This document shows, one piece after another, positions 2,732-40,871 of a stretch of DNA of 55,468 nt. Position numbers and translations under genes: made by a program. Below the pieces are notes generated by a model. That model saw nothing but the letters and a program-made list of their open reading frames with translations. It was not told the DNA's origin and ran no database searches. The stretch's first letter is position 1. Every line of letters starts with the position of its first letter. Origin of the DNA: a virus (taxonomy: Duplodnaviria > Caudoviricetes); IMG/VR virus record IMGVR_UViG_3300043449_000430, positions 1-55,468 of that record. One strand, given 5' to 3'.

Positions 2732-3334
2732 TTAATTATACCATTCTGATTTTTTAGTGAAGGAAGATCCAGTAAACTGGAACCACATAGAAGAACTAAA
2801 CCTGTCACCAGTTAATATTGTACGAACCTCGTGCAAATAGTTTTCGTTACCAGGGAAGAATATCAAACTATTTGGCGTTGGCTTAATATAAACCTTAAGG
2901 TCTGGGAAACATATTTCGCCACCAATGTAGTCATCATTGATATAGTATATGGAAGCAAGATGGTTTGATTCGGCTGAATCAGTATCTACATGAGGATGTA
3001 GCGCAAGCCCTTTCTCAAACTTAATCAACACAAGATTGTTTCTATCAAAAGGATTAATCTCTACATCATAAAGATCTGTCATTTCTTTGTGAACACGCAC
3101 AGACATTCCCTCTAATATAGACACAATGTTTCCTGGCATCTTATCTAGACCAATGGTCTTAGAGTCCCATGGTTGAAGAGCCCAGTCTTTTTGGGATCTC
3201 ACATACTCAAGAAGAGTTTTGTGGTCTTCTTCTGGCAGGAAGTTCTCAATGTACTTTAGGCTGTCTACAGACTTTCCTATTTTTTCAACATTCTTTAAAT
3301 AAATTTCGTCTTTTTTGGATGGATTCGTAATCAT
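2732..3334 (-). CDS. 2OG-Fe(II) oxygenase (prolyl-4-hydroxylase-like), paralog of 2153..2728
   Basis: HVD...YINDDYIGGE...FPG...HEV...RFSS. Confidence 0.85.
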   Translation of the reverse strand: MITNPSKKDEIYLKNVEKIGKSVDSLKYIENFLPEEDHKTLLEYVRSQKDWALQPWDSKTIGLDKMPGNIVSILEGMSVRVHKEMTDLYDVEINPFDRNNLVLIKFEKGLALHPHVDTDSAESNHLASIYYINDDYIGGEICFPDLKVYIKPTPNSLIFFPGNENYLHEVRTILTGDRFSSSMWFQFTGSSFTKKSEWYN

Positions 3335-5496: not shown

Positions 5497-5826
5497 TCAG
5501 TTTTTATCTAAAAGAGCACGAACAATTTGTTCCATTACGACTCTCTCATCTGTTGGTAAAGACTTTATAGAATAAGCATTAAAAGACTTTGGACCAAGTT
5601 TTACGATTGGATCTTCTTGAGTAACATCCATGTCGATAAAACCTTTTTCCCATAGTTTTAAAGTTACATCTGAAAAGTATGTAGATAGTTCTTCGCTAAG
5701 TTTTTGGTCAATATCCTTAAGTTTATCTGTAGGCCTATACAGAGCCTCTCCAGTTTCAGGATCTTTGCCTGCAAACTCTAGCCCACCATTAATAACTAAA
5801 TTATCAACGATATCAAACTCATCCAT
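5497..5826 (-). CDS. Hypothetical protein
   Basis: 109-aa ORF in the operon. Confidence 0.6.
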   Translation of the reverse strand: MDEFDIVDNLVINGGLEFAGKDPETGEALYRPTDKLKDIDQKLSEELSTYFSDVTLKLWEKGFIDMDVTQEDPIVKLGPKSFNAYSIKSLPTDERVVMEQIVRALLDKN

Positions 5827-6082
5827 GTCTATCCTCAGAAATAAAATCTAAGAAATCTTGACGAGTTTTTGTACCATTCATTCGACGGATCTCTTTGTCA
5901 TTTTCCACTAGGATAAATGTTGGCACAGCCTTAATATCAAACTTTTTTATTAGTTCAATATTAGCATCAGCATCTACAAATTCAAAATTTATAATTCCTT
6001 CTGCATGAAGTTCTTCTGCAACAGGTTTTGTGCGCTGACATGGATTACACCAGTCTGCTGTGAAGTAAAGTACATTGGTCAC
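5819..6082 (-). CDS. Thioredoxin-like protein
   Basis: FTADWCNPC active site, cis-Pro VPT. Confidence 0.9.
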   Translation of the reverse strand: MTNVLYFTADWCNPCQRTKPVAEELHAEGIINFEFVDADANIELIKKFDIKAVPTFILVENDKEIRRMNGTKTRQDFLDFISEDRHG

Positions 6083-6486
6083 TTTCCAGACTTCTTTCTA
6101 ACCTTTGCAAGAGCATCAAAGTCCTTAACCTTAGTATCTCCTAGGTATCCCCAAGCATAGCCATCATTGATCATCATATCGTTTAGAGATACGGTGTTGC
6201 CATCTACGTACACCCAGCCCAAAATACGACCATACTTTTCTGATGAGTCCATCTTCTCAGTCTTAATAACAACAGACTTAGCATCCTTAAGATGCTTCTT
6301 TAGGTACTCCTTAGCCTCAAGACCAAGTGCCTTCTCAGCAAGGTCCTTTGTACGAGACTCAGGGGTATCAATACCAGCCAGTCTTACACGAGACGCAAAA
6401 AGGATATCAAACCCTAAATCAATAAGAACGTCTATGGTATCTCCATCTACAACATTCTCTACTTTTCTTACATAGTATTCATACAT
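6079..6486 (-). CDS. Thermonuclease (SNase) family nuclease
   Basis: VVDGDT, RLAGIDTPE, KYGRILG; start moved to MYEYY (TAATG overlap). Confidence 0.9.
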   Translation of the reverse strand: MYEYYVRKVENVVDGDTIDVLIDLGFDILFASRVRLAGIDTPESRTKDLAEKALGLEAKEYLKKHLKDAKSVVIKTEKMDSSEKYGRILGWVYVDGNTVSLNDMMINDGYAWGYLGDTKVKDFDALAKVRKKSGK

Positions 6487-6689
6487 TATTTTCTCCCCCA
6501 TTGGATTTTGTTCCAACCACGCTCATGTGCGTAGTAGATAAATACTTTAACTACCGTTTCCCAAAAGGCAATAGCCCCTGAAAGTGTTGCATCACCAGTA
6601 AGTACATATGCAACAACAAATGAAGATAGGGTGCCCCATATGCGATAACTCAGTGCTTTAGTAAATGATCGTGCTTTAGTTACCGTCAC
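6486..6689 (-). CDS. DUF2061-family small membrane protein
   Basis: RSFTKALSYR...YYAHERGW signature; GTG start overlapping the upstream TGA. Confidence 0.8.
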   Translation of the reverse strand: MTVTKARSFTKALSYRIWGTLSSFVVAYVLTGDATLSGAIAFWETVVKVFIYYAHERGWNKIQWGRK

Positions 6690-6889
6690 TCTTTGCCCCA
6701 ATTAACCGCATTCCAAATTCTTTCATGATAATAGTAACATACAAAGTTAACAGCATTTGTTATTACTGTTGCCATCGTAGCCATATTAATATCTTTGCTG
6801 AGCGCATAAAGGGTTACAAATGTTGTTATTAGTGCAACAACTCTCCAAGTTAGCGACTTAGCAAAAGACCTACTCTTTTTCACTTTCAT
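6686..6889 (-). CDS. DUF2061-family small membrane protein
   Basis: RSFAKSLTWR...YYYHERIW signature. Confidence 0.8.
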   Translation of the reverse strand: MKVKKSRSFAKSLTWRVVALITTFVTLYALSKDINMATMATVITNAVNFVCYYYHERIWNAVNWGKE

Positions 6890-6951
6890 CTGGCTCCCAT
6901 CCATACATTACTCGCATCTCGTTGTCTGCGATCTTGTTGTCAAAAAAGATA

Positions 6952-7713
6952 CTAAATGCCCAGTTCTTTACGCTTTTCAGTAGCCGAAATAGCATGAATG
7001 GTTGCTCCTAAATCTACTTGTTCGATCTTATATCCTACATCACGACCATAAACAATATTTGTAATGTTCGGCAGTCTTAGTACTAACGATCCATCCATAA
7101 ATTCATCCTTAGCAATGTAGCCTTTTACTTCATCAAAAGTAAGCGGATCTTTCTCACTTGTCTTATATGTGTTGCGAACTCCAAGAAGTACTTGGTTAGT
7201 GCGCTTACCAGCCTCTACATAAAGAGCATGGTGTCCTTCATGCCATGGCTGATAACGACCAAGCATCAGGGTCGTAGGTGCAGACCAATCATGCAAACCA
7301 AATTCCTCAATAACGACAGAAGATTTTTCATTTGGATCTAGAGTATGGTTTAAAAATGACCAATCATACTCAGTAGGCGCTTCGAACATTTTGTTTGTAT
7401 CTTCAAAGCGCCCTTCTTTAATTGTGTCCATATAAATAAGAATATCTGGCTTGCCAAATGCTGCACGAGTAAGGTCTGTTGGACACACAAAGTCAACAAT
7501 AACTGGTGCAACGCCTTGCTTTGCAATTAGTCTTGCCATCTCTCCCATGCGACGGGCCTGCTCAAGTCTGTCTTCAGGTGTAAAGCCTAAGTCAGAGTTT
7601 ACTGTTGCACGAACCTCATCTGCATTCAGATGGATAGCGTTAATACGTTCTTTTAGTGCTTTTGCTAGTTCTGTCTTGCCAGATCCTGGCAGACCAATAA
7701 TTTGAATAATCAT
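6952..7713 (-). CDS. cysC: Adenylyl-sulfate (APS) kinase fused to a C-terminal HxGH nucleotidyltransferase domain
   Basis: GLPGSGKT, NADEVR..NSDLGF..EDR..ARR (APS kinase); then GRYQPWHEGH and ISATEKR (HIGH superfamily). Confidence 0.8.
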   Translation of the reverse strand: MIIQIIGLPGSGKTELAKALKERINAIHLNADEVRATVNSDLGFTPEDRLEQARRMGEMARLIAKQGVAPVIVDFVCPTDLTRAAFGKPDILIYMDTIKEGRFEDTNKMFEAPTEYDWSFLNHTLDPNEKSSVVIEEFGLHDWSAPTTLMLGRYQPWHEGHHALYVEAGKRTNQVLLGVRNTYKTSEKDPLTFDEVKGYIAKDEFMDGSLVLRLPNITNIVYGRDVGYKIEQVDLGATIHAISATEKRKELGI

Positions 7714-7967
7714 GCGTGTGGCGCTTCCTTTGCTTTGTTTTCAATCAACTTATCTCTTTCATCAATGACTGTAATCATAAACGACATCATCTTCTTATAG
7801 CCATCTGGGTTGTTCATGATCTTGTTGTAGTGATGCCCACAAAAAAGAAGGTCTCCATTAAGCCCAGTTACCTGCACCAATGCTTCTGCAGCACATGAGT
7901 CACATCGATCTGTGGCTTTTAGTACCCACTCTTTTACTTCTACAGGCGTCTCAGTCATTGTCTTCAT
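7710..7967 (-). CDS. Small Zn-binding hypothetical protein (CxxC...CxHH...IDER)
   Basis: DRCDSCAAEALV...FCGHHY...VIDER. Confidence 0.65.
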   Translation of the reverse strand: MKTMTETPVEVKEWVLKATDRCDSCAAEALVQVTGLNGDLLFCGHHYNKIMNNPDGYKKMMSFMITVIDERDKLIENKAKEAPHA

Positions 7968-8005
7968 AGTATACCCCACTTCTTAGATTGTTTACAATAT
8001 ACTTA

Positions 8006-8034
8006 ATTATACCCTAGTATGTCAATCATGTCAA
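8006..8034 (-). promoter_or_regulatory. Consensus sigma70/SigA promoter
   Basis: TTGACA-N17-TATAAT, perfect match, upstream of the APS kinase/DUF2061 gene run. Confidence 0.8.
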
Positions 8035-8041
8035 CACAGGA

Positions 8042-8653
8042 TCAGACATAGGTAAGTTTCTCTGCCTCTTCCGCAAGAGTAATTGTCATTCTGTATCTTT
8101 CATCTATCACCTTATGAAAATCCTCATACACTACTCCATTATTATAATATCTATTGGACTCTCTTCTAAAATGAAAATTACAATAAAAAACACCATCTGA
8201 TATATTGTTTATATCTTTTACTGTAGTAAAGTTGATTTTACCATCAACCATTTTGATCGGTATAACCTTGACAAGTGCGTCTGCCGTGCAACCGTACCTT
8301 CTGTCGTAAGAATTAATTAGAGAACACTTATGACCCCATGTTTCTGTGGTTGTTACATTTTTTGGAAATGTATCTTTTACTCTTTCTCTTTCATCAACTA
8401 TATAGTTAACAATACTTTGCCAAGGATTTTCTGGGTGAGAGTAGCCCTGTTTAGACATGTATAATTCGTAGTGATAGTGATAATCACATAGGAATTTGTT
8501 ACCATGGCTACCCTCAATATAAACAAATGCTGGGGTAACACATGACACATTGGCATTCTCCTTTGCGCCATGCATCTCCAATACTGATGGAGGGAAATTC
8601 ATTTTTGGATCAAATGCTTGACATTTTTGCTCTTCTGGTATTTTTGTTATCAT
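8042..8653 (-). CDS. Hypothetical protein with two tandem Cys/His domains
   Basis: Two copies of C..A.V...C..H....DER; start moved to MITKIP after an AAGGGAAAGG SD. Confidence 0.6.
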   Translation of the reverse strand: MITKIPEEQKCQAFDPKMNFPPSVLEMHGAKENANVSCVTPAFVYIEGSHGNKFLCDYHYHYELYMSKQGYSHPENPWQSIVNYIVDERERVKDTFPKNVTTTETWGHKCSLINSYDRRYGCTADALVKVIPIKMVDGKINFTTVKDINNISDGVFYCNFHFRRESNRYYNNGVVYEDFHKVIDERYRMTITLAEEAEKLTYV

Positions 8654-8666
8654 ATTTACCTTTCCC

Positions 8667-9320
8667 TTAGTAATGCTTTCTTCGCCAAAAATTTTTCTTA
8701 TAACTAATCTTTTTGTCTGAATGTCTTTCTTTATACATTCTTTGCCAGAATGCAGTATCGTACTCGGACTCATCTGCAGACCAGTCTTCTCTTTTTATAG
8801 GAATCACCTGAAACATTGGGGTTCCTGCCTTAATAACACCAGTAAAACTACTTTTAATGTAGAAAGGAATGTTTCCAATTATAGTATGATGATAAGTATC
8901 TGAATCTACAATTCCAGACATAGTATAGAAAGGAAGATCCGCCCTGTTTAATGGGTGGGTAATGAGGCTACTATACCCATCTGGAAGTTGTATTGACCAT
9001 GGTCGTTGCCAGATAAATTCTTTTTGATAAAGTTCTTCTGATGAAGGCATGGCAGTATTTTCTCTTTGCTTTACCATTTCAACTTCGTGTGGAAGTGTTT
9101 CAACTTTTACTTCTCCATTGTCGCATGTGACTAGAATATCTGTCCATGTTCTTTGAATATAGCCTGAAGTTAAAGCATCTAAAAATGGAACACATTTTTT
9201 TACCCCTGAAGGATCTGTCTTTGGCAAAATATCTTTGTACCATTCTGGTACAACAGACCTTGCTGGAGATGGAACCAGTTCTTTGATTTTTTTAGATCCA
9301 GGAATAAAAAGAACCTTCAT
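8667..9320 (-). CDS. Conserved phage hypothetical protein (KKC.PFLDA / SGIVDSD type, beta-rich)
   Basis: 217 aa; KKCVPFLDALTSGY, PW.I.LP.GYS, GIVDSD, GTP..QVIP motifs; function not assigned. Confidence 0.6.
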   Translation of the reverse strand: MKVLFIPGSKKIKELVPSPARSVVPEWYKDILPKTDPSGVKKCVPFLDALTSGYIQRTWTDILVTCDNGEVKVETLPHEVEMVKQRENTAMPSSEELYQKEFIWQRPWSIQLPDGYSSLITHPLNRADLPFYTMSGIVDSDTYHHTIIGNIPFYIKSSFTGVIKAGTPMFQVIPIKREDWSADESEYDTAFWQRMYKERHSDKKISYKKNFWRRKHY

Positions 9321-9506
9321 TTATTTTTTTCTATTATCTGTACTATAGAATCCAGACCCAGTAAACTGAGCCCCTATGGGAGTGTAGTGTCTTTTCATAT
9401 CAGCACCACACTCACCACAAGGATAGGTCTCTTTATAGTTTGACATACTGGTGTTGAATGGAACAATGTTGTTGTTGCACTCACACTTGTATTCGTATAT
9501 AGGCAT
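9321..9506 (-). CDS. FmdB-family zinc-ribbon protein
   Basis: MPIYEYKC..C...C..C...F.GSGFYSTD; start moved to 9506. Confidence 0.85.
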   Translation of the reverse strand: MPIYEYKCECNNNIVPFNTSMSNYKETYPCGECGADMKRHYTPIGAQFTGSGFYSTDNRKK

Positions 9507-9613
9507 TACTTCTTTTTCTTCTCTTTGACTGTCCAGTATGGAAGGTTTAGCGAATCTCCGCCCCACTCATAGCCTAATGCTTTTACGACAAATTTAATTA
9601 TCTTGATACGCAT
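9506..9613 (-). CDS. Small hypothetical protein (35 aa, not in ORF track)
   Basis: MRIKIIKFVVKALGYEWGGDSLNLPYWTVKEKKKK; TAATG overlaps at both ends. Confidence 0.55.
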   Translation of the reverse strand: MRIKIIKFVVKALGYEWGGDSLNLPYWTVKEKKKK

Positions 9614-9813
9614 TACTTCACCTTATGACCAAACTTTGCCCAAACTCTTTCGTGAAGAAAGTATCCAAGCGCTTCCCAGCCAATGTATAGAAGGGCACCA
9701 AGACTTGCGTACTCCCATTCACCAGTAAAAAGATAAATCACTCCAGCAACACCAACTAGATGGAAAGTTTCCCAACTCGCTGTTTTAAGCAATGTTCTCT
9801 TCGTTGATTCCAT
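9613..9813 (-). CDS. DUF2061-family small membrane protein (third copy)
   Basis: ESTKRTLLKTASW...YFLHERVW. Confidence 0.8.
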   Translation of the reverse strand: MESTKRTLLKTASWETFHLVGVAGVIYLFTGEWEYASLGALLYIGWEALGYFLHERVWAKFGHKVK

Positions 9814-10416
9814 TTACTTTGCCTTCTTAACTGCTGGCTTCTTCGCTACTGGCTTAGCAACTGCTTCTGCAGGTGCTGCTAGTTTATTTAGCAATGGAGC
9901 ATTTTCTTCTCCAGCATAAACTGGACGACCCCAACCAACTACTGCGTTCATTAACTTCTTTTTGTTGTTCTTTACATATCCACGAGTTTTCTCTACGCAC
10001 ATTCCGCCATTGCGCTGATCTCCCTTTGCAGTTCCTGAAGTGTTTCCTTCAATAACTTGGATAGTTCCATCACCGTTGTTCTTAATACAAAGACCAACAT
10101 GTGAAATACGATTTACACCATCTTCTGGGAAATCAAAATAAATCCAGTCTCCTGGCTGTGGATCATCATTGCGAGCATCTGACCAACGCTCAGCCTTCTT
10201 GAACCAGTCTGCTGCTGCAACTGTTGATGCTGACTTTGGGAATGACTTTACTCCCGCTGTAAAAGCACACCATGAAACGAATGACTGGCACCATGGCTGG
10301 AAGTTTACCTTAATCCATGCACCGTATTTTGTTTCATTATCTTTTGGGCCTTCAATTGTGCCCACTTCCTTTTTTGCAATCTCAATGATTGCCTCTAAAC
10401 TACCTTTTACTGCCAT
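9814..10416 (-). CDS. CHAP-domain endolysin/amidase
   Basis: PWCQSFVSW (Cys), PQPGD, SHVG (His), IEGNT; Lys/Ala/Pro tail. Confidence 0.85.
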   Translation of the reverse strand: MAVKGSLEAIIEIAKKEVGTIEGPKDNETKYGAWIKVNFQPWCQSFVSWCAFTAGVKSFPKSASTVAAADWFKKAERWSDARNDDPQPGDWIYFDFPEDGVNRISHVGLCIKNNGDGTIQVIEGNTSGTAKGDQRNGGMCVEKTRGYVKNNKKKLMNAVVGWGRPVYAGEENAPLLNKLAAPAEAVAKPVAKKPAVKKAK

Positions 10417-10454: not shown

Positions 10455-11894
10455 CTACCTACATATTGTAAAATTATATTCTTTTTCCCACTTAAGAATG
10501 TCATCCTCATCATTCAAAAGTGGCTGGCCTTTTATGTTAAGGCTAGTATTCAAAAGAACTGGGACACCAGTCTGAAGATAAAACTTGTTGATTGCTCTAT
10601 ATAGCCCTGGATGCTGCTCTCTTGTAACCGTCTGCACTCTAGATGTTCCATCTTCATGCACTACAGATGGGATCTTGTCGGGCTTCAAACACTTCACAGT
10701 GTATTGCATATACGGACTATCAAAATCCATATCAAACCATTTATGTGCATGATCAGCCAAAACTACAGGAGCAAACGGTCTGAATAGTTCTCTTTGTTTA
10801 ATCCTATTAACCTTATCTTTTATTAGTGGATCTCGTGGGTCTGCAAGAATTGATCTGTTGCCAAGTGCTCTTGGACCATACTCTGCTCGACCTGATGCTA
10901 CTGCTACTATTCCATCCTTCAATATTCCGTCAACAATTTGTTGAATAGGATAGTCTCCACCAAGATCATAGCCAAGATAAGGAGTCTTCCACTCAAGGTG
11001 CTTTCCATATAGCGCTGCTGCTGCACCCAAAGAACTTCCAGCATCCCCTGGGTTTGGCATAATCCAGATCATATCAAACAGGTTCCATAAAGATGTGTTG
11101 GCAGATGAGTTTAGTGCACATCCACCCATGAATACCAAATTCTTTTTTCCAGTTACAAGTTTAGCCATTCGCATAAACTCCATAAGCCTTGTGGTATAAA
11201 CAACTTGAACTGCTGCTGCAATGTCAAACTTATCTTGTTCTGTTATTGCCATATCCCAGTCGTGAATTCCTTTATGGAAGTTATATTTTTGAGTATGATA
11301 GTTTGGGAAATACTCGTCTACTTCTTTGTAATATCTCTTCCAGTCTCCATAAGCAGCCATACCCATCATAATGTATTCTTCTTGGTTTGGCATAAGGCCA
11401 ATCAGGTCTGTAAATGCAGAATAGAATAGGCCGAAACTAACTGGGTAGTTTTGCTTAAATTTAAGTTTAAGTTTGTTGCCTTCGCCTGACCAGACTGTGG
11501 ATGTATTGTATTCTCCCATTGCATCTAGGACTACAACTACAGCATCGTTAAATGGGCTTGTGTAGTATCCCGCAGCAGCGTGTGAATGATGATGACTAAA
11601 ATAAGTAGTTGGAACTCTTTTTCCAAACATATTATCAATTATATATCTTGGTTTCCAGTCTCCTGCACCACCCTTTAAAAGCAGTCTAGAGGCCTTTAGA
11701 AGAGGTTTTTCATAGTAGGCTATATGATCTGGATAGCCATACTGCAAAGCATCATTGATTAAACTATCATTGACATACCAGTCGTTTTTCTGCTTGCTAT
11801 ATCTTTCTGCATGACCTGCAAAAAGTATTTCTCCATCTTTGATTAGCGATACAGATGCATCGTGAGATGTTTCATTGATACCAAGAATTATCAC
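10455..11894 (-). CDS. Carbamoyltransferase (NodU/CmcH/TobZ family)
   Basis: HDAS, ERYSKQK, HHHSHA, DAMGE, MGMAAYG, GGCALN, GDAG, EYGPRALGNRS, FRPFAP, LNTSLN. Confidence 0.95.
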   Translation of the reverse strand: MIILGINETSHDASVSLIKDGEILFAGHAERYSKQKNDWYVNDSLINDALQYGYPDHIAYYEKPLLKASRLLLKGGAGDWKPRYIIDNMFGKRVPTTYFSHHHSHAAAGYYTSPFNDAVVVVLDAMGEYNTSTVWSGEGNKLKLKFKQNYPVSFGLFYSAFTDLIGLMPNQEEYIMMGMAAYGDWKRYYKEVDEYFPNYHTQKYNFHKGIHDWDMAITEQDKFDIAAAVQVVYTTRLMEFMRMAKLVTGKKNLVFMGGCALNSSANTSLWNLFDMIWIMPNPGDAGSSLGAAAALYGKHLEWKTPYLGYDLGGDYPIQQIVDGILKDGIVAVASGRAEYGPRALGNRSILADPRDPLIKDKVNRIKQRELFRPFAPVVLADHAHKWFDMDFDSPYMQYTVKCLKPDKIPSVVHEDGTSRVQTVTREQHPGLYRAINKFYLQTGVPVLLNTSLNIKGQPLLNDEDDILKWEKEYNFTICR

Positions 11895-13910: not shown

Positions 13911-13925
13911 ATTATAATTATATCC

Positions 13926-14450
13926 TTAAAGGCTAACGATGTCAACTGGACCCATACAGGATGGGCTAAATTTAATTGCAGCATTTACTGCCTGCAAGAC
14001 TCTGTTTCTTGCATTTTTTTGCTTATCTGTTGCATACAAAACTCCATATGCATACTCTGCCCCTGAACCCATAGCAAGATAGGGAAGTGTGTATTTAGAT
14101 AAAGACATATCTGCAGAACTGTGTTCGTAAATTTCACCACGGACTGCAATAATCAAACCAAGGTCTCCATCTTTAGATGTGTCAACCCAGAACTCGTTAT
14201 AGAAATCACGAAGTTCTTTAACAAACTTAGTCTGCATAAACTTATCTGTGTCTTTAATGTTTGGAGCAGTTGGCTTAAAATTGTATCGGATTCTTTCTCC
14301 GTCCATTGCCCCTGCATATCCAATAAGGTACGGACCAATCTTCCAAACCTTTGGAGCATCTAATGCTAAAATAGTACCATCATCTGAGGCACCACGATCA
14401 CCAGCCATGTAGATTTTATCTTCATGTTTTACTACAGAAATACAAGTCAT
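13926..14450 (-). CDS. Proteasome beta-subunit/HslV-like Ntn threonine protease
   Basis: N-terminal MTC, AGDR, PKV, GYAG, MGSG. Confidence 0.8.
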   Translation of the reverse strand: MTCISVVKHEDKIYMAGDRGASDDGTILALDAPKVWKIGPYLIGYAGAMDGERIRYNFKPTAPNIKDTDKFMQTKFVKELRDFYNEFWVDTSKDGDLGLIIAVRGEIYEHSSADMSLSKYTLPYLAMGSGAEYAYGVLYATDKQKNARNRVLQAVNAAIKFSPSCMGPVDIVSL

Positions 14451-35396: not shown

Positions 35397-35941
35397 TAAC
35401 TTCCTCCATTGTATATTGTATCATCAAAGGTTGATCCACTTGTCAGTATTTGAACCTCAGCCTGCTCTCCATCTTTAAGGTTAACTAGGTTAATTACTAG
35501 GTCTCCTGTTATTGGGTCTATGTATATTGACTTACAGTTTGGCACCTTGGTCCACTTAGTCTTGTCTGGCTCCCCGACCTTTTCTACGAGGTCGTATCCA
35601 TTACCACATTCTGGCAAGTGGTCTAGAACAGAAAGAGAAAGAGACTTAAAATACGAGTCTGAAGACTGAAGTCTTAAGATATTGTTTGGATTGTACTGCA
35701 AGTAAAGGTCTGTCAAGTTTTTTATTGGACTGTACAATATTTTTTGACCATTAACAAGGTCATGTCTTGAAATTGTTGCAAGTTCTTGCCCACCTATATC
35801 TTCAAAGATTAAGTCTGTCATTATATCAATAGACATAACCTCATCATCTCTTATAATAAGATCAGGTGTAGCAATCTTTACGGCACTACTATCCACTACT
35901 GTTTTTGGATCTGGAAGATTTGGTGTTGCGCTTGTTGTCAT
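35396..35941 (-). CDS. Putative tail protein
   Basis: Position in the tail operon, TAATG overlaps. Confidence 0.5.
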   Translation of the reverse strand: MTTSATPNLPDPKTVVDSSAVKIATPDLIIRDDEVMSIDIMTDLIFEDIGGQELATISRHDLVNGQKILYSPIKNLTDLYLQYNPNNILRLQSSDSYFKSLSLSVLDHLPECGNGYDLVEKVGEPDKTKWTKVPNCKSIYIDPITGDLVINLVNLKDGEQAEVQILTSGSTFDDTIYNGGS

Positions 35942-38900
35942 TAAACTACCTCACTTAGGAATACTGTCATTTCTGGCCCATCAGAACTCTTTGAATACTC
36001 TATATTATATATCACAAATCTACTTGAAGAAGAAGGAGATGCCATGCTTAGACCGTTTTCCTCATAGTCCACCGTAACTATATCTCCCAACTGAAGCGTT
36101 GGGATTGCAAAGATCTTAATACCTATAGACTTTCTTGGCTTTGTAATCTTTTCAACAAGCCACTTCATCAAACTATTTGCTTCATCATAAGACTGGATGT
36201 ATAGAGCGCTTATAGAAAAATCTTTTTTGCCGTAAGTCATTCTACTTAGTTTAATGTCTTGATAGTCCTGCTTAAACTTATATGGATTTGAAACTAGTTT
36301 ATCGGCAACAAACTCTGGATTTGAAGTTAAACTATTTTTGTTAAAGTATTCATCAAGTGTCAGTCTATTGTCAGACTGCTGAGTGAATGTCACACCCTGA
36401 ACTCTTAGATAGTTGCCTGTTGTCTCATCTAAACTGATTGCTGTATCCGTTGCGTTAAAGATCATAAACTCTGCCCCGTAAGATCCAGCCCTGAATCCTG
36501 AAACAACATATCCTTTAATCTTATTGAACGTTGGTGATATTTTTGCAGTCAATGCTGGAAACGCCTTATCATACTTGAAGTTAAATGTCGCTGCTTCTCT
36601 CATTATTGATCCAAACTCTTCAAAGAATATATTGTACTTAGGTGCTTCTGATGTTCCGATTCCAGATAGGTATGTGTTTTGGATTAGACCGCTCAGGGCA
36701 TACTTTCTAAAAGACTCATTTGCATCAACATCGGAATCTCCAAATGCTGAGTTAACTGGGGCACCTAAAGAGAAAGTTGTATTTTGAGAATAGTTATTGC
36801 AAAGAGCATATACATTTTCAAACATAACTCTTGAAGACCCTCTTGAGAATAGTGCAATCCCAGAGTAAACTGGTAGAGGATCTGTATCGTCCACTGTCTT
36901 AATTATTTTCCCGTTTAGATACAAATAGAATCTTCTTACTTTTCCTATGTCTTGGTACTCAACTGCAAGATCGTAAACCGTAGGATTTTCCTCAGCCACA
37001 ATTCTTGCCTGCCCAGTGAACTTGCCATCATCTACAGTTATTTCTCCAAGACCCTCCCATAACTTTACTGGGACTGCTTTTCCGTTATCAGACTTTACCT
37101 TATAAAAGAAAACATTGCTTACACTTTCTCTCTCTTCCTTTGAAAGATTTCCTATCCCAAGGGCTGCAATCTCAAAGTAGTATCCGACATTTGTTGATGA
37201 ATTTAGCATAAAAGCAAGTCCACCAGAACCACCAGAGATATTAATATTCTTGTCTGGAGTGTTTCCATTGACAACATAGTATGTTGCAGATCCATTAGAT
37301 GTCTGTCCTCTATCAGAACTATTCTCTATCTTTCCAACAATTCTCATTCTTGTTCCAAAATGCTTATACTTATTGTCTTCTAGTGATTTATGAACATATG
37401 AAATAAAGTTTCGTGGCTTTTCTTTTGTAGTAAAGTTTGGTCCAGTAACTGAAAGGGCGGAAGACTGAAGGGTTCCACTCTGAACTGCTGTTGCTGTACT
37501 GATTTCTCCTAAGAATGAAGTCGACATAAAGTTTTTAATAATTCCACTTCTTGAAGATGTTCTTGAAAGAGCATCTGAAGATATTCCAGAGTCAGTTAAC
37601 TTTCCAGCAGACGCCACAGTTGTTGATGGAGTAGTTAAGTCTTTTTGGAATAAGTATTCTGATGACATATAACAACCCTTTACGTTATCATCTGCCTTCC
37701 AGTAATCTGCTATCCCAGCACTATGAGCGACCACCTTTGTGCCAAACTGACCACGACCATGTTTTTGAACATCTCCATTTTGTAGTTTTACGACACCATC
37801 TTTTTCAAAATACTTTGGCTCGGAATAAATTCTGACAAGGCCAGTAGGATATATTTTTCCATTAAATGGAAGTTTTGCAAAATAGTTTTGATAGTCTTCT
37901 GTAGATGTTATCCAGACATTTCCAAACCCAGACACATTGTATTGAACAGCGTCATACTTTATAATCTCTCCCTGTGAATAAAAATATCCATTGTATCTAG
38001 TGATCCAATATGCTGCTTCTCCAAGACTAAATGTATTATTTATTACGATATTATTTTTTACAATGGGTACGTCTGCTGTAAGATCTGAGTTAAGCGGAAT
38101 AGCGCTAAGGACATAAGCAGACTGGGTAGCCACCTCATTATTAATAGACTTTGTGTTTTGGGTTCCAGAAACTTCCCACAGCAGTGCTGGCTTGTATGTA
38201 TAGAATCTTTCATTATCTACAAGGCTTGCCTGTCTAAGCGATCCGATAGACCTTTGAATGTATCTGCTGGTATAGTTGATTGTTCCATCATTGTATGCCG
38301 AATTTTCTTGGGTTGATACAGAGATTATGTTTGCCAATTTTGGTTTATTTGTCTTGTTACGAATTTCAGACTCTTCAATAAAGTCTTTAGTTCCTTTTAG
38401 GGCAAAGGTGGTTGGTCTTTCTGCTACTGTTGGCATTATATAATTTTTGCTCATCATAACAAAGTTATTGTATTCATCAAAGAACATCGCTGTCTGTGTT
38501 GATACTGCTAAATCTTCAAGAACCTGAGCAACGCTAGTTTCTGGAGAAACAAAAAAATATGGGATAACTATTTCTTTTTCGTTTGCTACTCTTTTAAAAG
38601 TATAGTTAGAAAATCCAATATGGTCTAGCAATAAAGAAACTGCAGAACTAACCGACACCTCTGTCATTAATATTTCTGGAGCGGTTATAGACTCAAGATA
38701 CCAATATAGATCTCTAAGATTTATGGCCACACGCTTTGTCATTAGGTCTTGCTTTGGAAATGCATCAGAGTATAGAGTTTTTATTGGGACATAGTAATCC
38801 CAGCCATCGACATCGACAACCACTTCGTAAAACTTAAACTGCACATGTCTGGAAATATATTTAGAAATAATGCTGTCTTTATTATTATCATTAAATGCAT

Positions 38901-40233
38901 TGTCATGATCAAAAATATTAATGTTTCCATTAGAGGCTATCAACTGGCCAACTGGCAATCCAGAAATACCAAGGTCTGAAGCGCTCTTGTTGATCGAGTA
39001 GTCTAATGTCTTATCGGAAATGTTTAAAGCAAGTCTTGGAGATATCTCGATAAGATCAAAAGTTGAATCTTTGACATTCATTGTCTCAACAACAACTCTT
39101 ACTCCACTAAGGTATTCAAATTCTCTAAATTGCAACTTATTGTCAAGTGGCCGATAAAAAACATCTGGGGATGTGGCGTCGGTAACAAAGTTTGTTAACC
39201 TGTCAACTGTTTCATCTTGTACATACCAGCCATACTTTGGGCTAAGCACAATATATTCTGTACCGTTCCAAATATGGAAACTTCCAATATCGTTAGCATT
39301 TGCTTTAATTAAATAAGCATACCCAACAACAGACTGCTCAGGGAGCAATACTACATCGCTATATGTCTCAGCAAATACAAAAGTATCTCTCCATTCGTCT
39401 GGGACAATTAGTCCATAAGCAATCTCAACATAACCATCACTCTTTATAACGGAAGAGCCATCTTTTCTTTTTACCGCTGGATCAAACGATATTACATTCT
39501 CCCAGTTGCCATCTTTGAGGAACTGGATTTTCCACTTGCTAGGAGTTTTTTGATTTGACTCACCAAAAAATGGATCAATGTACGACCCAGTAGATGAAGA
39601 AAATGGCCCAAGGTTTTCAGTTCCTGTATGGGTCTGCATTTTGACAACGACTCTGTTTGCTGGGATCTTTTCTTTATATACAACGAAGGGCACAGCGTCT
39701 TCAATAGAGTACTGCTGTCCACGAACCTTTGAAGCAATGCCATATTCAGAGCCAGACTCTGTTCTATAAGATGTCCAATATTTAAATTTATCATTTTTGT
39801 CTGGCATGTAGTACCTAGGTCTATCTGCCATAACAAGATTAGGATGATGAAGTTTTCCATTTTCAAAGAACATTGCCTTATTGATTCCAGACCTTGGCCT
39901 AAACTGTCCGAAGCAATCCTCTAGTGAGTACAGTGTCTGCATTTTTTCTTTTTTGTTTAAAAGAATTGTGGGGATATTGTCATTATCAAAAACACCGTCT
40001 ACGACAACATCTGCATCTGTTGCCCCAGTGTAAAAGTTTCCAGCATCGTTAATGTCAAAACTTGTTGGTAAAGAAGCATAGATAGAGCCTGACTGAGTTG
40101 GTCTGTATCGATAGTTTCCTATGTGCTTAATATTAGTTGGAATATTCATATTCCACTCAGCAGTTATAACTGACTTATTTCTTATTGTAGAAGATGTTTC
40201 TAAAAAATTCTGCAGACCTTTATCTTCAAACAT
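35941..40233 (-). CDS. Large tail tip/hub protein
   Basis: About 1430 aa, second gene after the tape measure; P.LQLGDIV C-terminal motif; start moved to MFEDKG. Confidence 0.65.
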   Translation of the reverse strand: MFEDKGLQNFLETSSTIRNKSVITAEWNMNIPTNIKHIGNYRYRPTQSGSIYASLPTSFDINDAGNFYTGATDADVVVDGVFDNDNIPTILLNKKEKMQTLYSLEDCFGQFRPRSGINKAMFFENGKLHHPNLVMADRPRYYMPDKNDKFKYWTSYRTESGSEYGIASKVRGQQYSIEDAVPFVVYKEKIPANRVVVKMQTHTGTENLGPFSSSTGSYIDPFFGESNQKTPSKWKIQFLKDGNWENVISFDPAVKRKDGSSVIKSDGYVEIAYGLIVPDEWRDTFVFAETYSDVVLLPEQSVVGYAYLIKANANDIGSFHIWNGTEYIVLSPKYGWYVQDETVDRLTNFVTDATSPDVFYRPLDNKLQFREFEYLSGVRVVVETMNVKDSTFDLIEISPRLALNISDKTLDYSINKSASDLGISGLPVGQLIASNGNINIFDHDNAFNDNNKDSIISKYISRHVQFKFYEVVVDVDGWDYYVPIKTLYSDAFPKQDLMTKRVAINLRDLYWYLESITAPEILMTEVSVSSAVSLLLDHIGFSNYTFKRVANEKEIVIPYFFVSPETSVAQVLEDLAVSTQTAMFFDEYNNFVMMSKNYIMPTVAERPTTFALKGTKDFIEESEIRNKTNKPKLANIISVSTQENSAYNDGTINYTSRYIQRSIGSLRQASLVDNERFYTYKPALLWEVSGTQNTKSINNEVATQSAYVLSAIPLNSDLTADVPIVKNNIVINNTFSLGEAAYWITRYNGYFYSQGEIIKYDAVQYNVSGFGNVWITSTEDYQNYFAKLPFNGKIYPTGLVRIYSEPKYFEKDGVVKLQNGDVQKHGRGQFGTKVVAHSAGIADYWKADDNVKGCYMSSEYLFQKDLTTPSTTVASAGKLTDSGISSDALSRTSSRSGIIKNFMSTSFLGEISTATAVQSGTLQSSALSVTGPNFTTKEKPRNFISYVHKSLEDNKYKHFGTRMRIVGKIENSSDRGQTSNGSATYYVVNGNTPDKNINISGGSGGLAFMLNSSTNVGYYFEIAALGIGNLSKEERESVSNVFFYKVKSDNGKAVPVKLWEGLGEITVDDGKFTGQARIVAEENPTVYDLAVEYQDIGKVRRFYLYLNGKIIKTVDDTDPLPVYSGIALFSRGSSRVMFENVYALCNNYSQNTTFSLGAPVNSAFGDSDVDANESFRKYALSGLIQNTYLSGIGTSEAPKYNIFFEEFGSIMREAATFNFKYDKAFPALTAKISPTFNKIKGYVVSGFRAGSYGAEFMIFNATDTAISLDETTGNYLRVQGVTFTQQSDNRLTLDEYFNKNSLTSNPEFVADKLVSNPYKFKQDYQDIKLSRMTYGKKDFSISALYIQSYDEANSLMKWLVEKITKPRKSIGIKIFAIPTLQLGDIVTVDYEENGLSMASPSSSSRFVIYNIEYSKSSDGPEMTVFLSEVV

Positions 40234-40871
40234 TATACTTCTTCCAAAGTAACTGAGACATTCCAATAATCAAAATTGGATCCTCTTTTTTCTACAGAGT
40301 ATGTAAAACTAGAAATAAACATCTCTACAAGTTGATTATATTGGGCTAAATGGTCATATGGATTTTCTTTACCCTTAAATACACCCTTCTTATCGTATGC
40401 AAGAAATACCCAAAAAGAGCCCTTATGCGAGTCATACCACTCAAGCATATCTGCTCCGCCAGCACCACCATCTGTAGTATAAGACTTGTATGGAGATAGC
40501 CCTGTTTCTGGATTAAAACTTGGGACATCTGAATGAGATCTAGAAGGAATCATGTTCCAACTAGTGCTAAGTTTCATCTTGTCTGCAATATGATATGACC
40601 TCATACGGCCATTTATCATTCGCTCCCGTTTTTCAATTCGCTCATCTGAGAAGTCTAATGGAGATCTATTGTCATCTGTAAGCATTAAAAACTGGTCTAT
40701 AAGAGTTGAATCTTCTTCTGCTGAGGCATCGGCTCCAACCTCAAGACCATAAGGGATATACAAACCATTTATCAGGGTCCCAGAATTTTCAGACCAAAGC
40801 ATACCGCTAGGTCTATCATATTTCCTACGACTTTGCATATAGGTATATCTTGGATCAATATTATCTGCCAT
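40233..40871 (-). CDS. Putative distal tail protein
   Basis: Directly after the tape measure; RMINGRMR...WNVSVTLEEV. Confidence 0.55.
   Translation of the reverse strand: MADNIDPRYTYMQSRRKYDRPSGMLWSENSGTLINGLYIPYGLEVGADASAEEDSTLIDQFLMLTDDNRSPLDFSDERIEKRERMINGRMRSYHIADKMKLSTSWNMIPSRSHSDVPSFNPETGLSPYKSYTTDGGAGGADMLEWYDSHKGSFWVFLAYDKKGVFKGKENPYDHLAQYNQLVEMFISSFTYSVEKRGSNFDYWNVSVTLEEV

Follow-up and report, generated by a model that had tools for sequence, protein, structure and literature searches.

The window analysed here, a 55,468-nucleotide stretch of a virus record with an estimated completeness of about 51%, contains a gene for a 253-aa protein in which an APS-kinase-like domain (K) is followed by a miniature HxGH nucleotidyltransferase domain (N) (Table 1). 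A sequence-only reading had described this fusion together with three DUF2061 genes and a perfect promoter, and all of these elements are present where that reading had placed them. The exact TTGACA-17-TATAAT arrangement occurs twice in the window, compared with 0.08 occurrences expected from shuffles. The promoter had been noted as lying upstream; the perfect site exists, but it directly precedes the DUF7455 gene rather than the fusion gene. Co-directional genes continue downstream of the site, beginning with DUF7455, whose stop overlaps the fusion gene's start and which is a near neighbour of the fusion in 33 of the 80 related loci. The 72-aa DUF2061 gene, an additional, inserted copy, separates the fusion from its conserved 71-aa partner. 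The end of the latter is overlapped by the nuclease gene (found in 40/80 related loci), with which the thioredoxin gene (23/80) shares a 4-base overlap.

Table 1. Features of the fusion locus and its surroundings
Feature	Position	Strand	Basis or remark
CHAP endolysin gene	9814-10416		Stop one base before the start of the third DUF2061 gene
Third DUF2061 protein, 66 aa	9613-9813	-	Pfam, E 3.2e-11
Sigma-70-type promoter-like site TTGACA-17-TATAAT, putative	8006-8034	-	12/12 hexamer matches
DUF7455 protein, 89 aa, Cys/His-rich	7710-7979	-	PF24254, E 3.4e-14
K-N fusion, 253 aa	6952-7713	-	ORF; K then N
K domain, residues 1-138, APS-kinase-like P-loop	7300-7713	-	Pfam APS_kinase
N domain, residues 141-253 and stop, miniature HxGH nucleotidyltransferase	6952-7293	-	Motifs
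DUF2061 protein, 72 aa	6686-6904	-	Pfam, E 2.7e-15
DUF2061 protein, 71 aa, conserved downstream partner of the fusion	6486-6701	-	Pfam, E 1.5e-17
Staphylococcal-nuclease-like gene, co-directional	6079-6516	-	Pfam SNase, E 7.5e-17
Thioredoxin gene, co-directional	5819-6082	-	Pfam Thioredoxin, E 3.4e-17

No Sat or CysD/CysH-type protein was found in the window or in four related phage records, and PF01747, the ATP-sulfurylase catalytic domain, has no match in the window. A Nol/NodU-like carbamoyltransferase is also encoded in the window (phrog_1601, E 1.1e-105).

The two domains of the fusion

Residues 2-84 of K match Pfam APS_kinase (PF01583; E 6.6e-15, 55.9 bits with a cut-off of 21.1) over profile positions 4-90 of 152, and positions 91-152 are unmatched. 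Most of the lid is missing, and the DGD motif is replaced by NAD. The score against NCBIfam CysC (56.8 bits) is far under the cut-off of 138.7, and canonical CysC shares 40% identity with K residues 2-78. The structure of K was predicted by AlphaFold2 with a pLDDT of 95.8, and every top match of this model in a Foldseek comparison with the PDB is an APS kinase (E from 4e-9). The P-loop (GLPGSGKT) is intact, and K13, D32, R35, F44, R49 and Q52 are conserved in 47 or more of the 52 representatives; position 30 is Asn in 32 of the 52 and Asp in 17. In human PAPS synthase, APS kinase activity is abolished in the D87A and D89A mutants, as reported in PMC8528679. Close relatives carry the source annotation 'adenylylsulfate kinase'.

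The N domain comprises 113 aa with the motifs GRYQPWHEGH, YGRDVGY and ISATEKR. It had been read as a relative of Sat-type ATP sulfurylases, with a NadM-type NMN adenylyltransferase named as the alternative, and it is to the alternative that the searches place it nearest. The N profile finds NadM NMNATs among PDB sequences (2qjt, E 2.8e-9; MJ0541, E 8.4e-9) and no ATP sulfurylase. The best fold match is likewise NadM (2r5w, E 5e-3; TM 0.56-0.70), and ATP sulfurylase is absent among the listed fold matches. In a profile-profile comparison with Sat, only 21 columns around HxGH were aligned, with a probability of 12.5%. N is nearest to the NadM-type NMN adenylyltransferases, and Sat-type ATP sulfurylase does not match it significantly. 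Its family scores are weak, with an E of 4.4e-5 and 23.1 bits against a cut-off of 127 for NCBIfam NadM/NMNAT and an E of 0.011 for Pfam CTP_transf_like. Only the ISxTxxR end and roughly 60 residues at the N-terminus align with NMNAT, and the middle of the domain is shortened, with 19 profile positions compared with about 44 residues of a 168-aa NMNAT chain. G223, R224, G227 and R248 are invariant across the 52 representatives. From its genomic context, N is proposed to be a sulfate adenylyltransferase.

Genomic neighbours in phages and cells

In every arrangement seen, N occurs with an APS-kinase domain. The K-N fusions comprise 52 full-length representatives, the reverse order N-K is found in one protein (P0160), and K and N are split neighbouring genes in about 60 Pelagibacteraceae/SAR86 loci. 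In another protein (P0159), an N part with 52% identity to the window N is joined to an entire canonical APS kinase (PF01583, E 5.7e-63, positions 2-151 of 152), an architecture common to 177 protein clusters. In other relatives, K or K-N is joined to DUF4118, a membrane domain.

Sulfotransferases are the commonest neighbours both of K-N in diverse phages and of N-CysC. Of 80 diverse phage loci, 37 have a sulfotransferase gene close to K-N, in 18 cases directly adjacent. Two different families are represented, Sulfotransfer_3/1 (E 7.5e-13) and Sulfotransfer_2 (E 1.3e-10); among 50,697 phage records, these same sulfotransferases matched no more than 10 and 4. A TPR-Sulfotransfer_3 protein (E 1.9e-32) is present in 11 of 37 marine N-CysC contigs, and the cultured Stenotrophomonas phage DLP6 carries K-N (44% identity) and an annotated sulfotransferase. 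In the lineage of the window itself, 9 of 80 loci have strong matches (E < 1e-9), two of them checked with Pfam; the one complete related genome shows no more than a weak Sulfotransfer_1 match (E 9.6e-5), which is interrupted by an internal stop. The sequence-only reading had seen no sulfotransferase in the window, and searching the window found none either; the co-occurrence with sulfotransferases that it had suggested looking for was present in these relatives.

The most conserved neighbour of K-N in the related phage loci is DUF2061, found in 77 of 80 loci compared with 40 of 80 for the next gene. In 72 of these loci a DUF2061 ORF starts no more than 110 bp downstream of K-N, and the number rises to 77 when the limit is 800 bp. 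The 80 loci contain 116 DUF2061 matches, of which 71 are near-downstream copies of the 71-aa type, the hydropathy of which shows two moderately hydrophobic segments, and 8 are near-downstream copies of the 72-aa type. DUF2061 also adjoins K-N in 8 further loci from other phage lineages, and in 3 loci N and DUF2061 form a single 192-aa ORF. DUF2061 is thus a real partner of K-N in phages. The third gene, which had been counted in the same system, behaves differently: of the 20 loci that have both the 66-aa type and a CHAP gene, 17 place the former immediately behind the latter, and the distance of this DUF2061 gene to the fusion ranges from about 430 to 5776 bp. It probably goes with the endolysin cassette and not with the K-N unit. 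DUF2061 is absent from the K-N-carrying Xylella phage Sano and from DLP6. In a set of 121 Pelagibacterales genomes, DUF2061 shows neither proximity to N nor an association with N (52/99 genomes with N, 17/22 without), and the suggestion that DUF2061 oligomers carry sulfate found no supporting evidence. Bacterial DUF2061 genes appear in Fur or iron-limitation regulon listings of three species (PMC3751524, PMC12442407, PMC12341060).

In cells, K/N adjoins aprA/aprB in 6 of 80 loci. Of the 121 Pelagibacterales genomes, 95 carry N together with AprB, 18 have neither and 8 have just one of the two (Fisher p 3.6e-14, uncorrected for phylogeny), a co-occurrence behind which there may be few evolutionary events. 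In 20 of the 121 genomes, N lies no more than 3 kb from aprB, in two different arrangements. Sat is present in only 5 genomes and missing from 116, and a preprint (10.1101/2022.09.23.509140) states that 'most SAR11 lack ATP sulfurylase'. Four of the 5 Sat-bearing genomes also carry N, so the two distributions are not complementary. AprBA is thought to remove sulfite, according to PMC12636525 and PMC5069961, and Table 3 of the latter lists cysC in exactly the aprA-bearing SAR11 strains; this cysC is probably the K domain. An unrecognised K/N pair sits by APS reductase in SAR11, an abundant ocean bacterium in which the usual sulfate-activating enzyme is mostly missing.

Proposed function and alternatives

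The genomic context supports a role of the fusion in APS/PAPS metabolism, and its best reading is that of a compact enzyme for making PAPS. The miniature PAPS synthase of the sequence-only reading retains the support of its context (APS kinase, sulfotransferases, APS reductase) and loses that of homology to Sat; the case is made by context. We see an even chance that the 253-aa protein is a two-domain sulfate-activation enzyme that makes PAPS and has a DUF2061 membrane partner. N, as a miniature NadM-derived HxGH nucleotidyltransferase, would transfer the AMP of ATP to sulfate, yielding APS and pyrophosphate. K, as a short-lid APS kinase, would phosphorylate the 3'-OH of APS to form PAPS, which would serve the sulfotransferases encoded by related phages and possibly the host too. 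The 71-aa DUF2061 protein may sit in the membrane and act there as partner or tether for the enzyme. Several observations count against PAPS synthesis: N is closest to NadM and not to ATP sulfurylase by sequence and fold, it coexists with Sat in four of the five Sat-bearing Pelagibacterales genomes, K lacks DGD and most of the lid and scores below the CysC cut-off, and the window has no detected sulfotransferase. The absence of DUF2061 from Sano and DLP6 and its lack of linkage to N in cells count against the partnership.

A less probable reading keeps the unit linked to APS and has N run in reverse or serve another APS role, the phage copy boosting flux or ATP yield and not PAPS. In SAR11, N would convert APS and pyrophosphate to ATP and sulfate, finishing sulfite detoxification after AprBA. 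The co-occurrence and proximity of aprBA and N, the 116 Pelagibacterales genomes without Sat, the sulfite removal ascribed to AprBA (PMC12636525, PMC5069961) and the lack of a detectable sulfotransferase in the window agree with this direction. However, an APS-consuming kinase domain is always attached or adjacent to N, and the commonest neighbours in phages and N-CysC contigs are sulfotransferases, which require PAPS; the chemistry is identical to that of PAPS synthesis, and direction and host context alone differ. Non-catalytic APS-kinase-like domains occur in some fungal and bacterial ATP sulfurylases, and K could likewise be an APS/PAPS-binding regulatory or scaffolding domain in a unit that releases APS only. 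The NAD motif of most members, the unmatched PF01583 positions 91-152 and the inactivation of human PAPSS by D87A (PMC8528679) point that way. We nevertheless consider this improbable: the P-loop is intact, D32, R35, R49 and F44 are kept, Asp at position 30 in 17 of 52 members indicates that both residues are tolerated in one family, the neighbouring sulfotransferases require PAPS rather than APS, and one branch has N joined to a complete canonical CysC that takes the same role.

The GRxQPxHxGH motif and the best sequence and fold matches of N, all of the NadM type, would suit an NAD salvage unit in which N is an NMN or pyridine nucleotide adenylyltransferase, K a nucleoside or nucleotide kinase and the membrane proteins serve uptake. 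NadR likewise joins an NMNAT to a P-loop kinase. The partial alignment of N (about 60 N-terminal residues and ISxTxxR; 23.1 versus 127 bits in NCBIfam), the APS-kinase-like sequence and fold of K, the fusion of N to canonical CysC and a neighbourhood of sulfotransferases and APS reductase with no NAD genes make such a unit very unlikely. It is possible, though doubtful, that DUF2061 is unrelated to sulfate and that these are small lysis or host-takeover membrane proteins (e.g., holin-like) adjacent to K-N by shared history. The position of the third copy, immediately behind the CHAP endolysin in 17 of the 20 loci, the lack of nearness or association with N in the 121 Pelagibacterales genomes, the cultured K-N phages Sano and DLP6 without DUF2061, and the regulon listings (PMC3751524, PMC12442407, PMC12341060) are all in line with this. 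On the other side stand the conserved downstream copy in 77 of 80 loci, where other neighbours reach at most 40, the 8 loci in other phage lineages, the three fusions to N, and the DUF4118 membrane domains fused to K in cellular relatives.

Relation to known systems

In such phages, and probably in SAR11 too, K goes by the name of CysC in annotation pipelines and papers; CysC is reported in freshwater viruses (10.1101/655167). K differs from bacterial CysC in its truncated lid, altered DGD and attached second, predicted catalytic domain, which the viral and SAR11 CysC literature, as far as consulted, does not mention. NadM, both archaeal NMNAT and the NadM-Nudix of Francisella and Synechocystis, has the motifs GRFQPFHxGH, NPF and ISxTEIR in common with N, whereas N has a shortened middle, its own invariant YGRDVGY, sub-cut-off family scores and a gene context of sulfur rather than NAD. 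With Sat-/CysDN-type ATP sulfurylases, N would share its proposed reaction, and Sat has the same signature of the HxxH superfamily; the Sat proteins of SAR11 carry F(Q/H)TRNxPHxGH, VGRDHAG and SG(S/T)xxR. Beyond the HxGH turn, however, a family relationship to N is undetectable. In rhizobia, NodPQ and NodH provide a dedicated PAPS supply encoded beside a glycan-decorating sulfotransferase. The window resembles this system, which includes NodU, in also encoding a Nol/NodU-like carbamoyltransferase, but NodPQ are CysD/CysN-CysC paralogues unrelated to N. Compared with animal PAPSS1/2, the phage fusion is short (253 versus about 620-630 aa), K is missing most of the lid and carries NAD in the place of DGD, and the second domain is NadM-like with about 113 aa, whereas PF01747 spans 212 profile positions. 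Both are single chains in which an N-terminal APS-kinase domain precedes an adenylyltransferase with His-x-x-His, and the proposed product is PAPS in each case; K aligns to the human APS-kinase domain with an E of about 1e-9, and PAPSS structures are its best fold matches.

Domains of the K-N fusion protein

The 253-aa fusion protein K-N joins an APS-kinase-like P-loop domain (K; residues 1 to ~138) to a 113-aa HxGH nucleotidyltransferase (N). K matches Pfam PF01583 with 55.9 bits (cut-off 21.1; E 6.6e-15) over profile positions 4-90 of 152 only, and reaches 56.8 bits with the NCBIfam equivalog TIGR00455, far under the cut-off of 138.7. The P-loop, GLPGSGKT, occupies residues 7-14, and its G7, G12, K13 and T14 show little or no variation among the 52 full-length representatives of the family alignment. 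In Foldseek, the fold has only APS kinases among its top PDB matches (E 4e-9 to 7e-7; target-normalised TM 0.55-0.78). The full APS-kinase lid is absent: profile positions 91-152 are unmatched, and in the AlphaFold2 model built on the 52 representatives (mean pLDDT 95.8) the lid is a single short helix (residues 104-109) between strands 91-95 and 118-120. In APS kinases, a Phe stacks on the adenine, and two Arg and an Asn are located at the phosphosulfate. Pairwise alignment places F44, R35, R49 and Q52 of K opposite F, R, R and N of the human enzyme, and these four K residues are conserved across the representatives. The DGDN(I/V)R motif with both Asp residues is not found in the window protein, which reads NADEVR. 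Position 30 is Asn in 32 of the 52 representatives and Asp in 17; D32 is retained in 49 and R35 in all 52. The cellular copies of K have NAD instead of DGD in 79 of 80 cases. Because the D87A and D89A substitutions each abolish the kinase activity of human PAPS synthase (accessible part of PMC8528679), K is APS-kinase-like with one divergent defining feature, the DGD motif. K is probably a working APS kinase.

The N domain (residues 141-253) carries the motifs GRYQPWHEGH and ISATEKR and an invariant YGRDVGY. Its HxxH signature is H158-E-G-H161, with both His residues present in 51 of the 52 representatives. The NadM motifs GRFQPxHxGH and ISxTxxR are found in N, which was aligned to NadM by profile. 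Against PDB sequences, the N profile detects NadM-type NMN adenylyltransferases at E 2.8e-9 and 8.4e-9; ATP sulfurylases do not appear among its matches up to E 10. The separate model of N (pLDDT 88.2) resembles NadM most closely (E 5e-3, TM 0.56-0.70); pantothenate synthetase, GCT and PPAT are its other best Foldseek matches, and ATP sulfurylase is absent among the matches listed to rank 50. The Pfam search of K-N gives no match to PF01747, the family of the ATP sulfurylase Sat. When the N family was compared with five Pelagibacterales Sat proteins in hhalign, the alignment extended over just 21 columns, at HxGH, with a probability of 12.5%. Since the profile and fold comparisons favour NadM and hhalign does not join N to Sat, N is, as judged by sequence profile and predicted structure, a shortened NadM-like nucleotidyltransferase outside the Sat family. 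The sequence-only reading had allied N with Sat-type enzymes, which fails on all three comparisons; the alternative that it named, a resemblance of GRxQPxH to NadM, is substantiated by profile and fold. An equivalence of YGRDVGY with VGRDHAG of Sat was also considered and rejected, the hhalign alignment being confined to the HxGH turn.

N fails both NMNAT family models (NF002243, 23.1 bits, cut-off 127; TIGR01527, 16.3 bits, cut-off 181.2). It aligns only to residues 5-65 and 110-134 of the 168-aa MJ0541, and the missing middle segment of NadM is presumably the nicotinamide-binding part. Foldseek alignments of N with most NMNAT matches span 77-80 columns. Protein atlas clusters name N only by the generic 'cytidyltransferase-like'.

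More than 7,200 proteins match the fusion at E <= 0.001, of which the top 120 share 85-96% identity with it and almost all have a length of 253 aa. Clustering at 50% gives 92 representatives at E < 1e-30. The PHROGs entry, phrog_10255 (E 1.2e-60), is labelled 'kinase', and cultured phages of Xylella, Xanthomonas, Stenotrophomonas and Clavibacter carry K-N at 36-44% identity, annotated as 'kinase' or hypothetical. Besides K-N, the protein relatives include a reversed N-K (P0160), a DUF4118-K-N (P0128) and fusions of K to DUF4118 (P0252, P0222, P0253 and P0193). In the N-CysC type (P0159), N is joined to a complete canonical APS kinase (PF01583 E 5.7e-63, positions 2-151 of 152); this architecture comprises 177 clusters, mainly from marine metagenomes, and N in this type shares 52% identity with N of the window. 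In Pelagibacteraceae and SAR86, about 60 genome loci, found by a genome-contig search with a 14-row alignment as the query, encode K (~135 aa) and N (124-135 aa) as two genes; these are adjacent or overlapping in nearly all of the loci and ~2.4 kb apart in three. N is linked to an APS-kinase-type domain in all arrangements seen.

Gene neighbourhood and the DUF2061 partner

The window, with an estimated completeness of ~51%, carries nearly all of its large ORFs on the minus strand, and its genes include a terminase, a DNA polymerase, a DnaB-like helicase and a UvsX-like recombinase. No near-identical DNA was found in the phage collection searched. The genes from DUF7455 through K-N, two DUF2061 genes and the nuclease to thioredoxin run in the same direction and mostly overlap or almost abut. 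Every feature of this locus noted in the sequence-only reading is correct; an amendment is needed only for the promoter, since the gene that follows it is DUF7455. A 243-aa ORF (8042-8773) beside the DUF7455 gene has no family match and is present in 2 of the best 80 related loci; this ORF and the DUF7455 protein contain Cys/His-rich segments that resemble each other (CDSC...CGHHY, FLCDYHYHYE, FYCNFHFRRE). The Nol/NodU-like carbamoyltransferase and the two 2OG-Fe(II) oxygenases, together with a PAPS supply, are reminiscent of glycan-decorating gene sets.

Features of the K-N locus and of the rest of the window
Feature	Coordinates	Strand	Remark
Promoter-like site TTGACA-17-TATAAT	8034..8006	-	exact pattern twice in window, 0.08 expected
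Second exact TTGACA-N17-TATAAT site	13917-13945	-	pattern search of window
DUF7455 gene, 89 aa	7979..7710	-	first gene downstream of promoter-like site
K-N fusion gene, 253 aa	7713..6952	-	
DUF2061 gene, 72 aa	6904..6686	-	
DUF2061 gene, 71 aa	6701..6486	-	
Staphylococcal-nuclease-like gene	6516..6079	-	
Thioredoxin gene	6082..5819	-	
Third DUF2061 gene	9813..9613	-	starts 1 base past CHAP endolysin stop
CHAP endolysin gene	10416..9814	-	
Nol/NodU-like carbamoyltransferase	10455-11894		just upstream of CHAP endolysin gene
Two 2OG-Fe(II) oxygenases	2153-2728 and 2732-3334		
Two very large ORFs, 2967 aa and 1441 aa	40861-49764 and 35941-40266	-	

Two sets of viral loci were compared, namely the best 80 each of 522 and 288 confirmed N-carrying stretches; one represents the window lineage, and the other, a diverse set, was retrieved with the N-CysC protein and nearly all of its loci bear K-N. 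Three window ORFs pass the DUF2061 model (PF09834; 64.2, 57.0 and 43.9 bits, cut-off 23.1). In the best 80 loci of the window lineage, a DUF2061 ORF starts no more than 110 bp downstream of K-N in 72 and no more than 800 bp downstream in 77; the three remaining loci include one contig that ends at K-N. The nuclease comes second among the conserved neighbours, with only 40 of these 80 loci. The conserved partner type is the 71-aa gene, and the 72-aa gene is an extra copy that few relatives carry. Both K-N-adjacent copies contain two moderately hydrophobic segments in hydropathy analysis. Twenty loci have both a CHAP endolysin gene and a DUF2061 gene of the third copy's type; in 17 of them the latter comes directly after the former, an arrangement suggestive of a function in the lysis cassette. 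The proposal that all three DUF2061 genes are tied to the fusion is thus upheld for the K-N-adjacent type and not for the third copy, which tracks the endolysin. The third gene occupies a place where a holin-like gene might be expected.

DUF2061 adjoins K-N in 8 of the best 80 diverse viral loci. Three further loci (L200:7767-8345, L201 and L204), in which no K domain was detected, contain a 192-aa ORF that joins the C-terminal HERxWN end of DUF2061 through a short linker to N. To judge from this DUF2061-N fusion, N may not need a fused kinase in order to function or to be anchored. A word search for longer fused DUF2061 forms gave one doubtful match only. Among 121 Pelagibacterales genomes, DUF2061 is present in 69 (17 of the 22 without N and 52 of the 99 with N) and is never close to N; it was also looked for, and is absent, in phages Sano and DLP6, both of which carry K-N. 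The bacterial DUF2061 genes CC_0155 (Caulobacter), SO_4740 (Shewanella) and VP_RS12985 (Vibrio parahaemolyticus) belong to Fur/iron-limitation regulons according to the accessible parts of PMC3751524, PMC12442407 and PMC12341060, and no mentions of DUF2061 beyond such regulon tables were found in the accessible portions of the literature. Complex prediction for K-N with the 71-aa DUF2061 protein (score 0.00, mark 0.32) is uninformative either way. Our conclusion is that the partnership of DUF2061 with K-N is specific to phages and that DUF2061 acts, in the simplest view, as a membrane tether. Whether DUF2061 itself binds or tethers K-N is evenly balanced in our estimate, and the role of sulfate carrier proposed for its oligomers from sequence is very improbable.

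Sulfotransferases and APS reductase beside K and N

The two most recurrent neighbour families in the best 80 diverse viral loci are sulfotransferases, of the Sulfotransfer_3/1 type in 21 and the Sulfotransfer_2 type in 16. One or the other is present in 37 of the 80, with the gene directly adjoining in 18, and the pairing with K-N is seen in several different gene orders. Across phage records generally, the same two sulfotransferases find matches in 10 and 4 of 50,697. The best 80 loci of the window lineage (59-92% identity) contain strong sulfotransferase HMM matches in 9 and weak matches in about 5 more, two of which matches were confirmed with Pfam. Stenotrophomonas phage DLP6, which has the closest K-N among cultured phages, also has an annotated sulfotransferase, and a TPR-Sulfotransfer_3 protein (E 1.9e-32) is encoded on 11 of 37 marine N-CysC metagenome contigs. 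The co-occurrence with sulfotransferases on which the sequence-only reading had asked for a check is therefore positive in relatives. The window itself, from which about half of the genome is missing, contains no sulfotransferase family at the thresholds used, as that reading had observed, and the complete related genome G001 has only a weak match with an internal stop. Neither PAPS reductase/CysD nor Sat was found in searches of the window and four related records.

Several loci contain further genes of possible relevance. In the marine contigs L252-L288, a divergent POT-family transporter gene flanks the N-CysC gene in 25 of 37, and a 654-aa protein without a Pfam match follows it in 23 of 37. 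At one viral locus, a 219-aa ORF upstream of K-N (L075:5324-5983) has a sulfotransferase-like GGAPRSGST loop and is a lead only: its match to the sulfotransferase model is weak (E 1.6e-3, 19.2 bits, cut-off 27), and jackhmmer found no relatives among the collected loci. A GT2 and TPR glycosyltransferase gene lies downstream of the DUF2061 gene at the same locus (L075:6974-8044). A stand-alone K gene is located ~2.7 kb from a 618-aa Sulfotransfer_3 protein (E 4e-15) on a Saccharibacteria contig (L102:1475-3331). Xylella phage Sano (L001) has a 'cysteine dioxygenase' annotation, also sulfur-related, at 2199-2876, ~3 kb upstream of the K-N 'kinase'.

The K/N module adjoins aprA/aprB in 6 of 80 cellular loci (L150, L157, L159, L160, L162 and L163; for example L160:4416-7908). 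In these loci, where the K/N genes are of the SAR11 type, aprA/aprB are flanked by two conserved proteins of 116 aa and 265 aa without Pfam matches, the latter of which we take as a candidate for AprM, the membrane anchor of the reductase. In the 121 Pelagibacterales genomes, all at least 80% complete, N and AprB are each present in 99; 95 have both, 18 have neither and 4 have each gene alone. The Fisher p value of 3.6e-14 is uncorrected for shared ancestry and so overstates independence. These tallies include G089, a genome flagged as unpublished that has both genes; without it, each gene is found in 98 of 120 and both in 94. N lies no more than 3 kb from aprB in 20 genomes, in two arrangements. 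Table 3 of PMC5069961 lists cysC in exactly those SAR11 strains that have aprA, and from this portion of the paper we infer that the listed cysC is K. The accessible parts of two further sources describe aprAB as core genes under strong purifying selection (PMC12636525) and state that 'most SAR11 lack ATP sulfurylase' (10.1101/2022.09.23.509140); Sat is found in only 5 of the 121 genomes. A complementary distribution of N and Sat was rejected: 4 of the 5 Sat-bearing genomes also carry N, which disfavours N as a simple replacement of Sat.

A proposed route to PAPS and its relation to known systems

The K-N unit very probably acts in APS/PAPS metabolism. A pairing of adenylyltransfer with a kinase would also suit another acceptor, as in a CoA-synthase-like or Kennedy-pathway-like reaction; both readings were dropped in view of the sulfotransferase and APS reductase neighbours. 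Judged from genomic context, N has about an even chance of being an ATP sulfurylase. N would then convert ATP and sulfate to APS, and K would phosphorylate APS to PAPS. The ATP sulfurylase step is unfavourable and is pulled forward by the following step; the fusion would retain APS and draw this first step forward. DUF2061 would hold the enzyme at the membrane, and PAPS would pass to sulfotransferases of the phage or the host. In SAR11, N of the K/N pair may run in the ATP-forming direction after AprBA.

Taken together, these proposals form a joint reading that we advance tentatively, at slightly less than even probability. N would represent an unrecognised class of ATP sulfurylase of ~115-135 aa, derived from a NadM-like enzyme, and with the lid-less APS kinase would supply the missing sulfate/APS step beside AprBA in SAR11 and SAR86. 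The form carried by many aquatic phages would be fused, tethered to the membrane by DUF2061, and would make PAPS during infection to sulfate glycans or other targets.

Viral CysC has already been reported as an auxiliary gene (accessible parts of 10.1101/655167, PMC8066274 and 10.1101/2020.08.24.253096), and CysC is the existing annotation of the K half. A literature search, with subscription journals and supplementary tables outside its scope, found no paper describing the attached N domain, the sulfotransferase pairing, the aprBA link or the DUF2061 partnership. Phrase searches for a phage or viral sulfotransferase and for a novel, unusual, non-canonical, alternative or atypical ATP sulfurylase found no paper, and titles and abstract openings on phage, sulfotransferase, APS kinase and ATP sulfurylase describe no such fusion. 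If the reading is true, the widely reported viral 'cysC' auxiliary gene would be a complete sulfate-activation unit, often alongside sulfotransferases, which would point to sulfation as a phage strategy. A third, minimal ATP sulfurylase would be a candidate for the step that forms or consumes APS in the sulfur metabolism of SAR11, where AprBA is core but Sat is mostly missing, and a one-chain PAPS generator of 253 aa could be of use in biocatalytic sulfation.

PAPS synthesis is textbook chemistry, and K-N would be a PAPS synthase with a different, miniature adenylyltransferase. The tether reading of DUF2061 parallels the DUF4118 membrane-domain fusions of K relatives. To our knowledge, only two kinds of ATP sulfurylase exist, Sat and CysDN; in the bolder reading, N would be the third.
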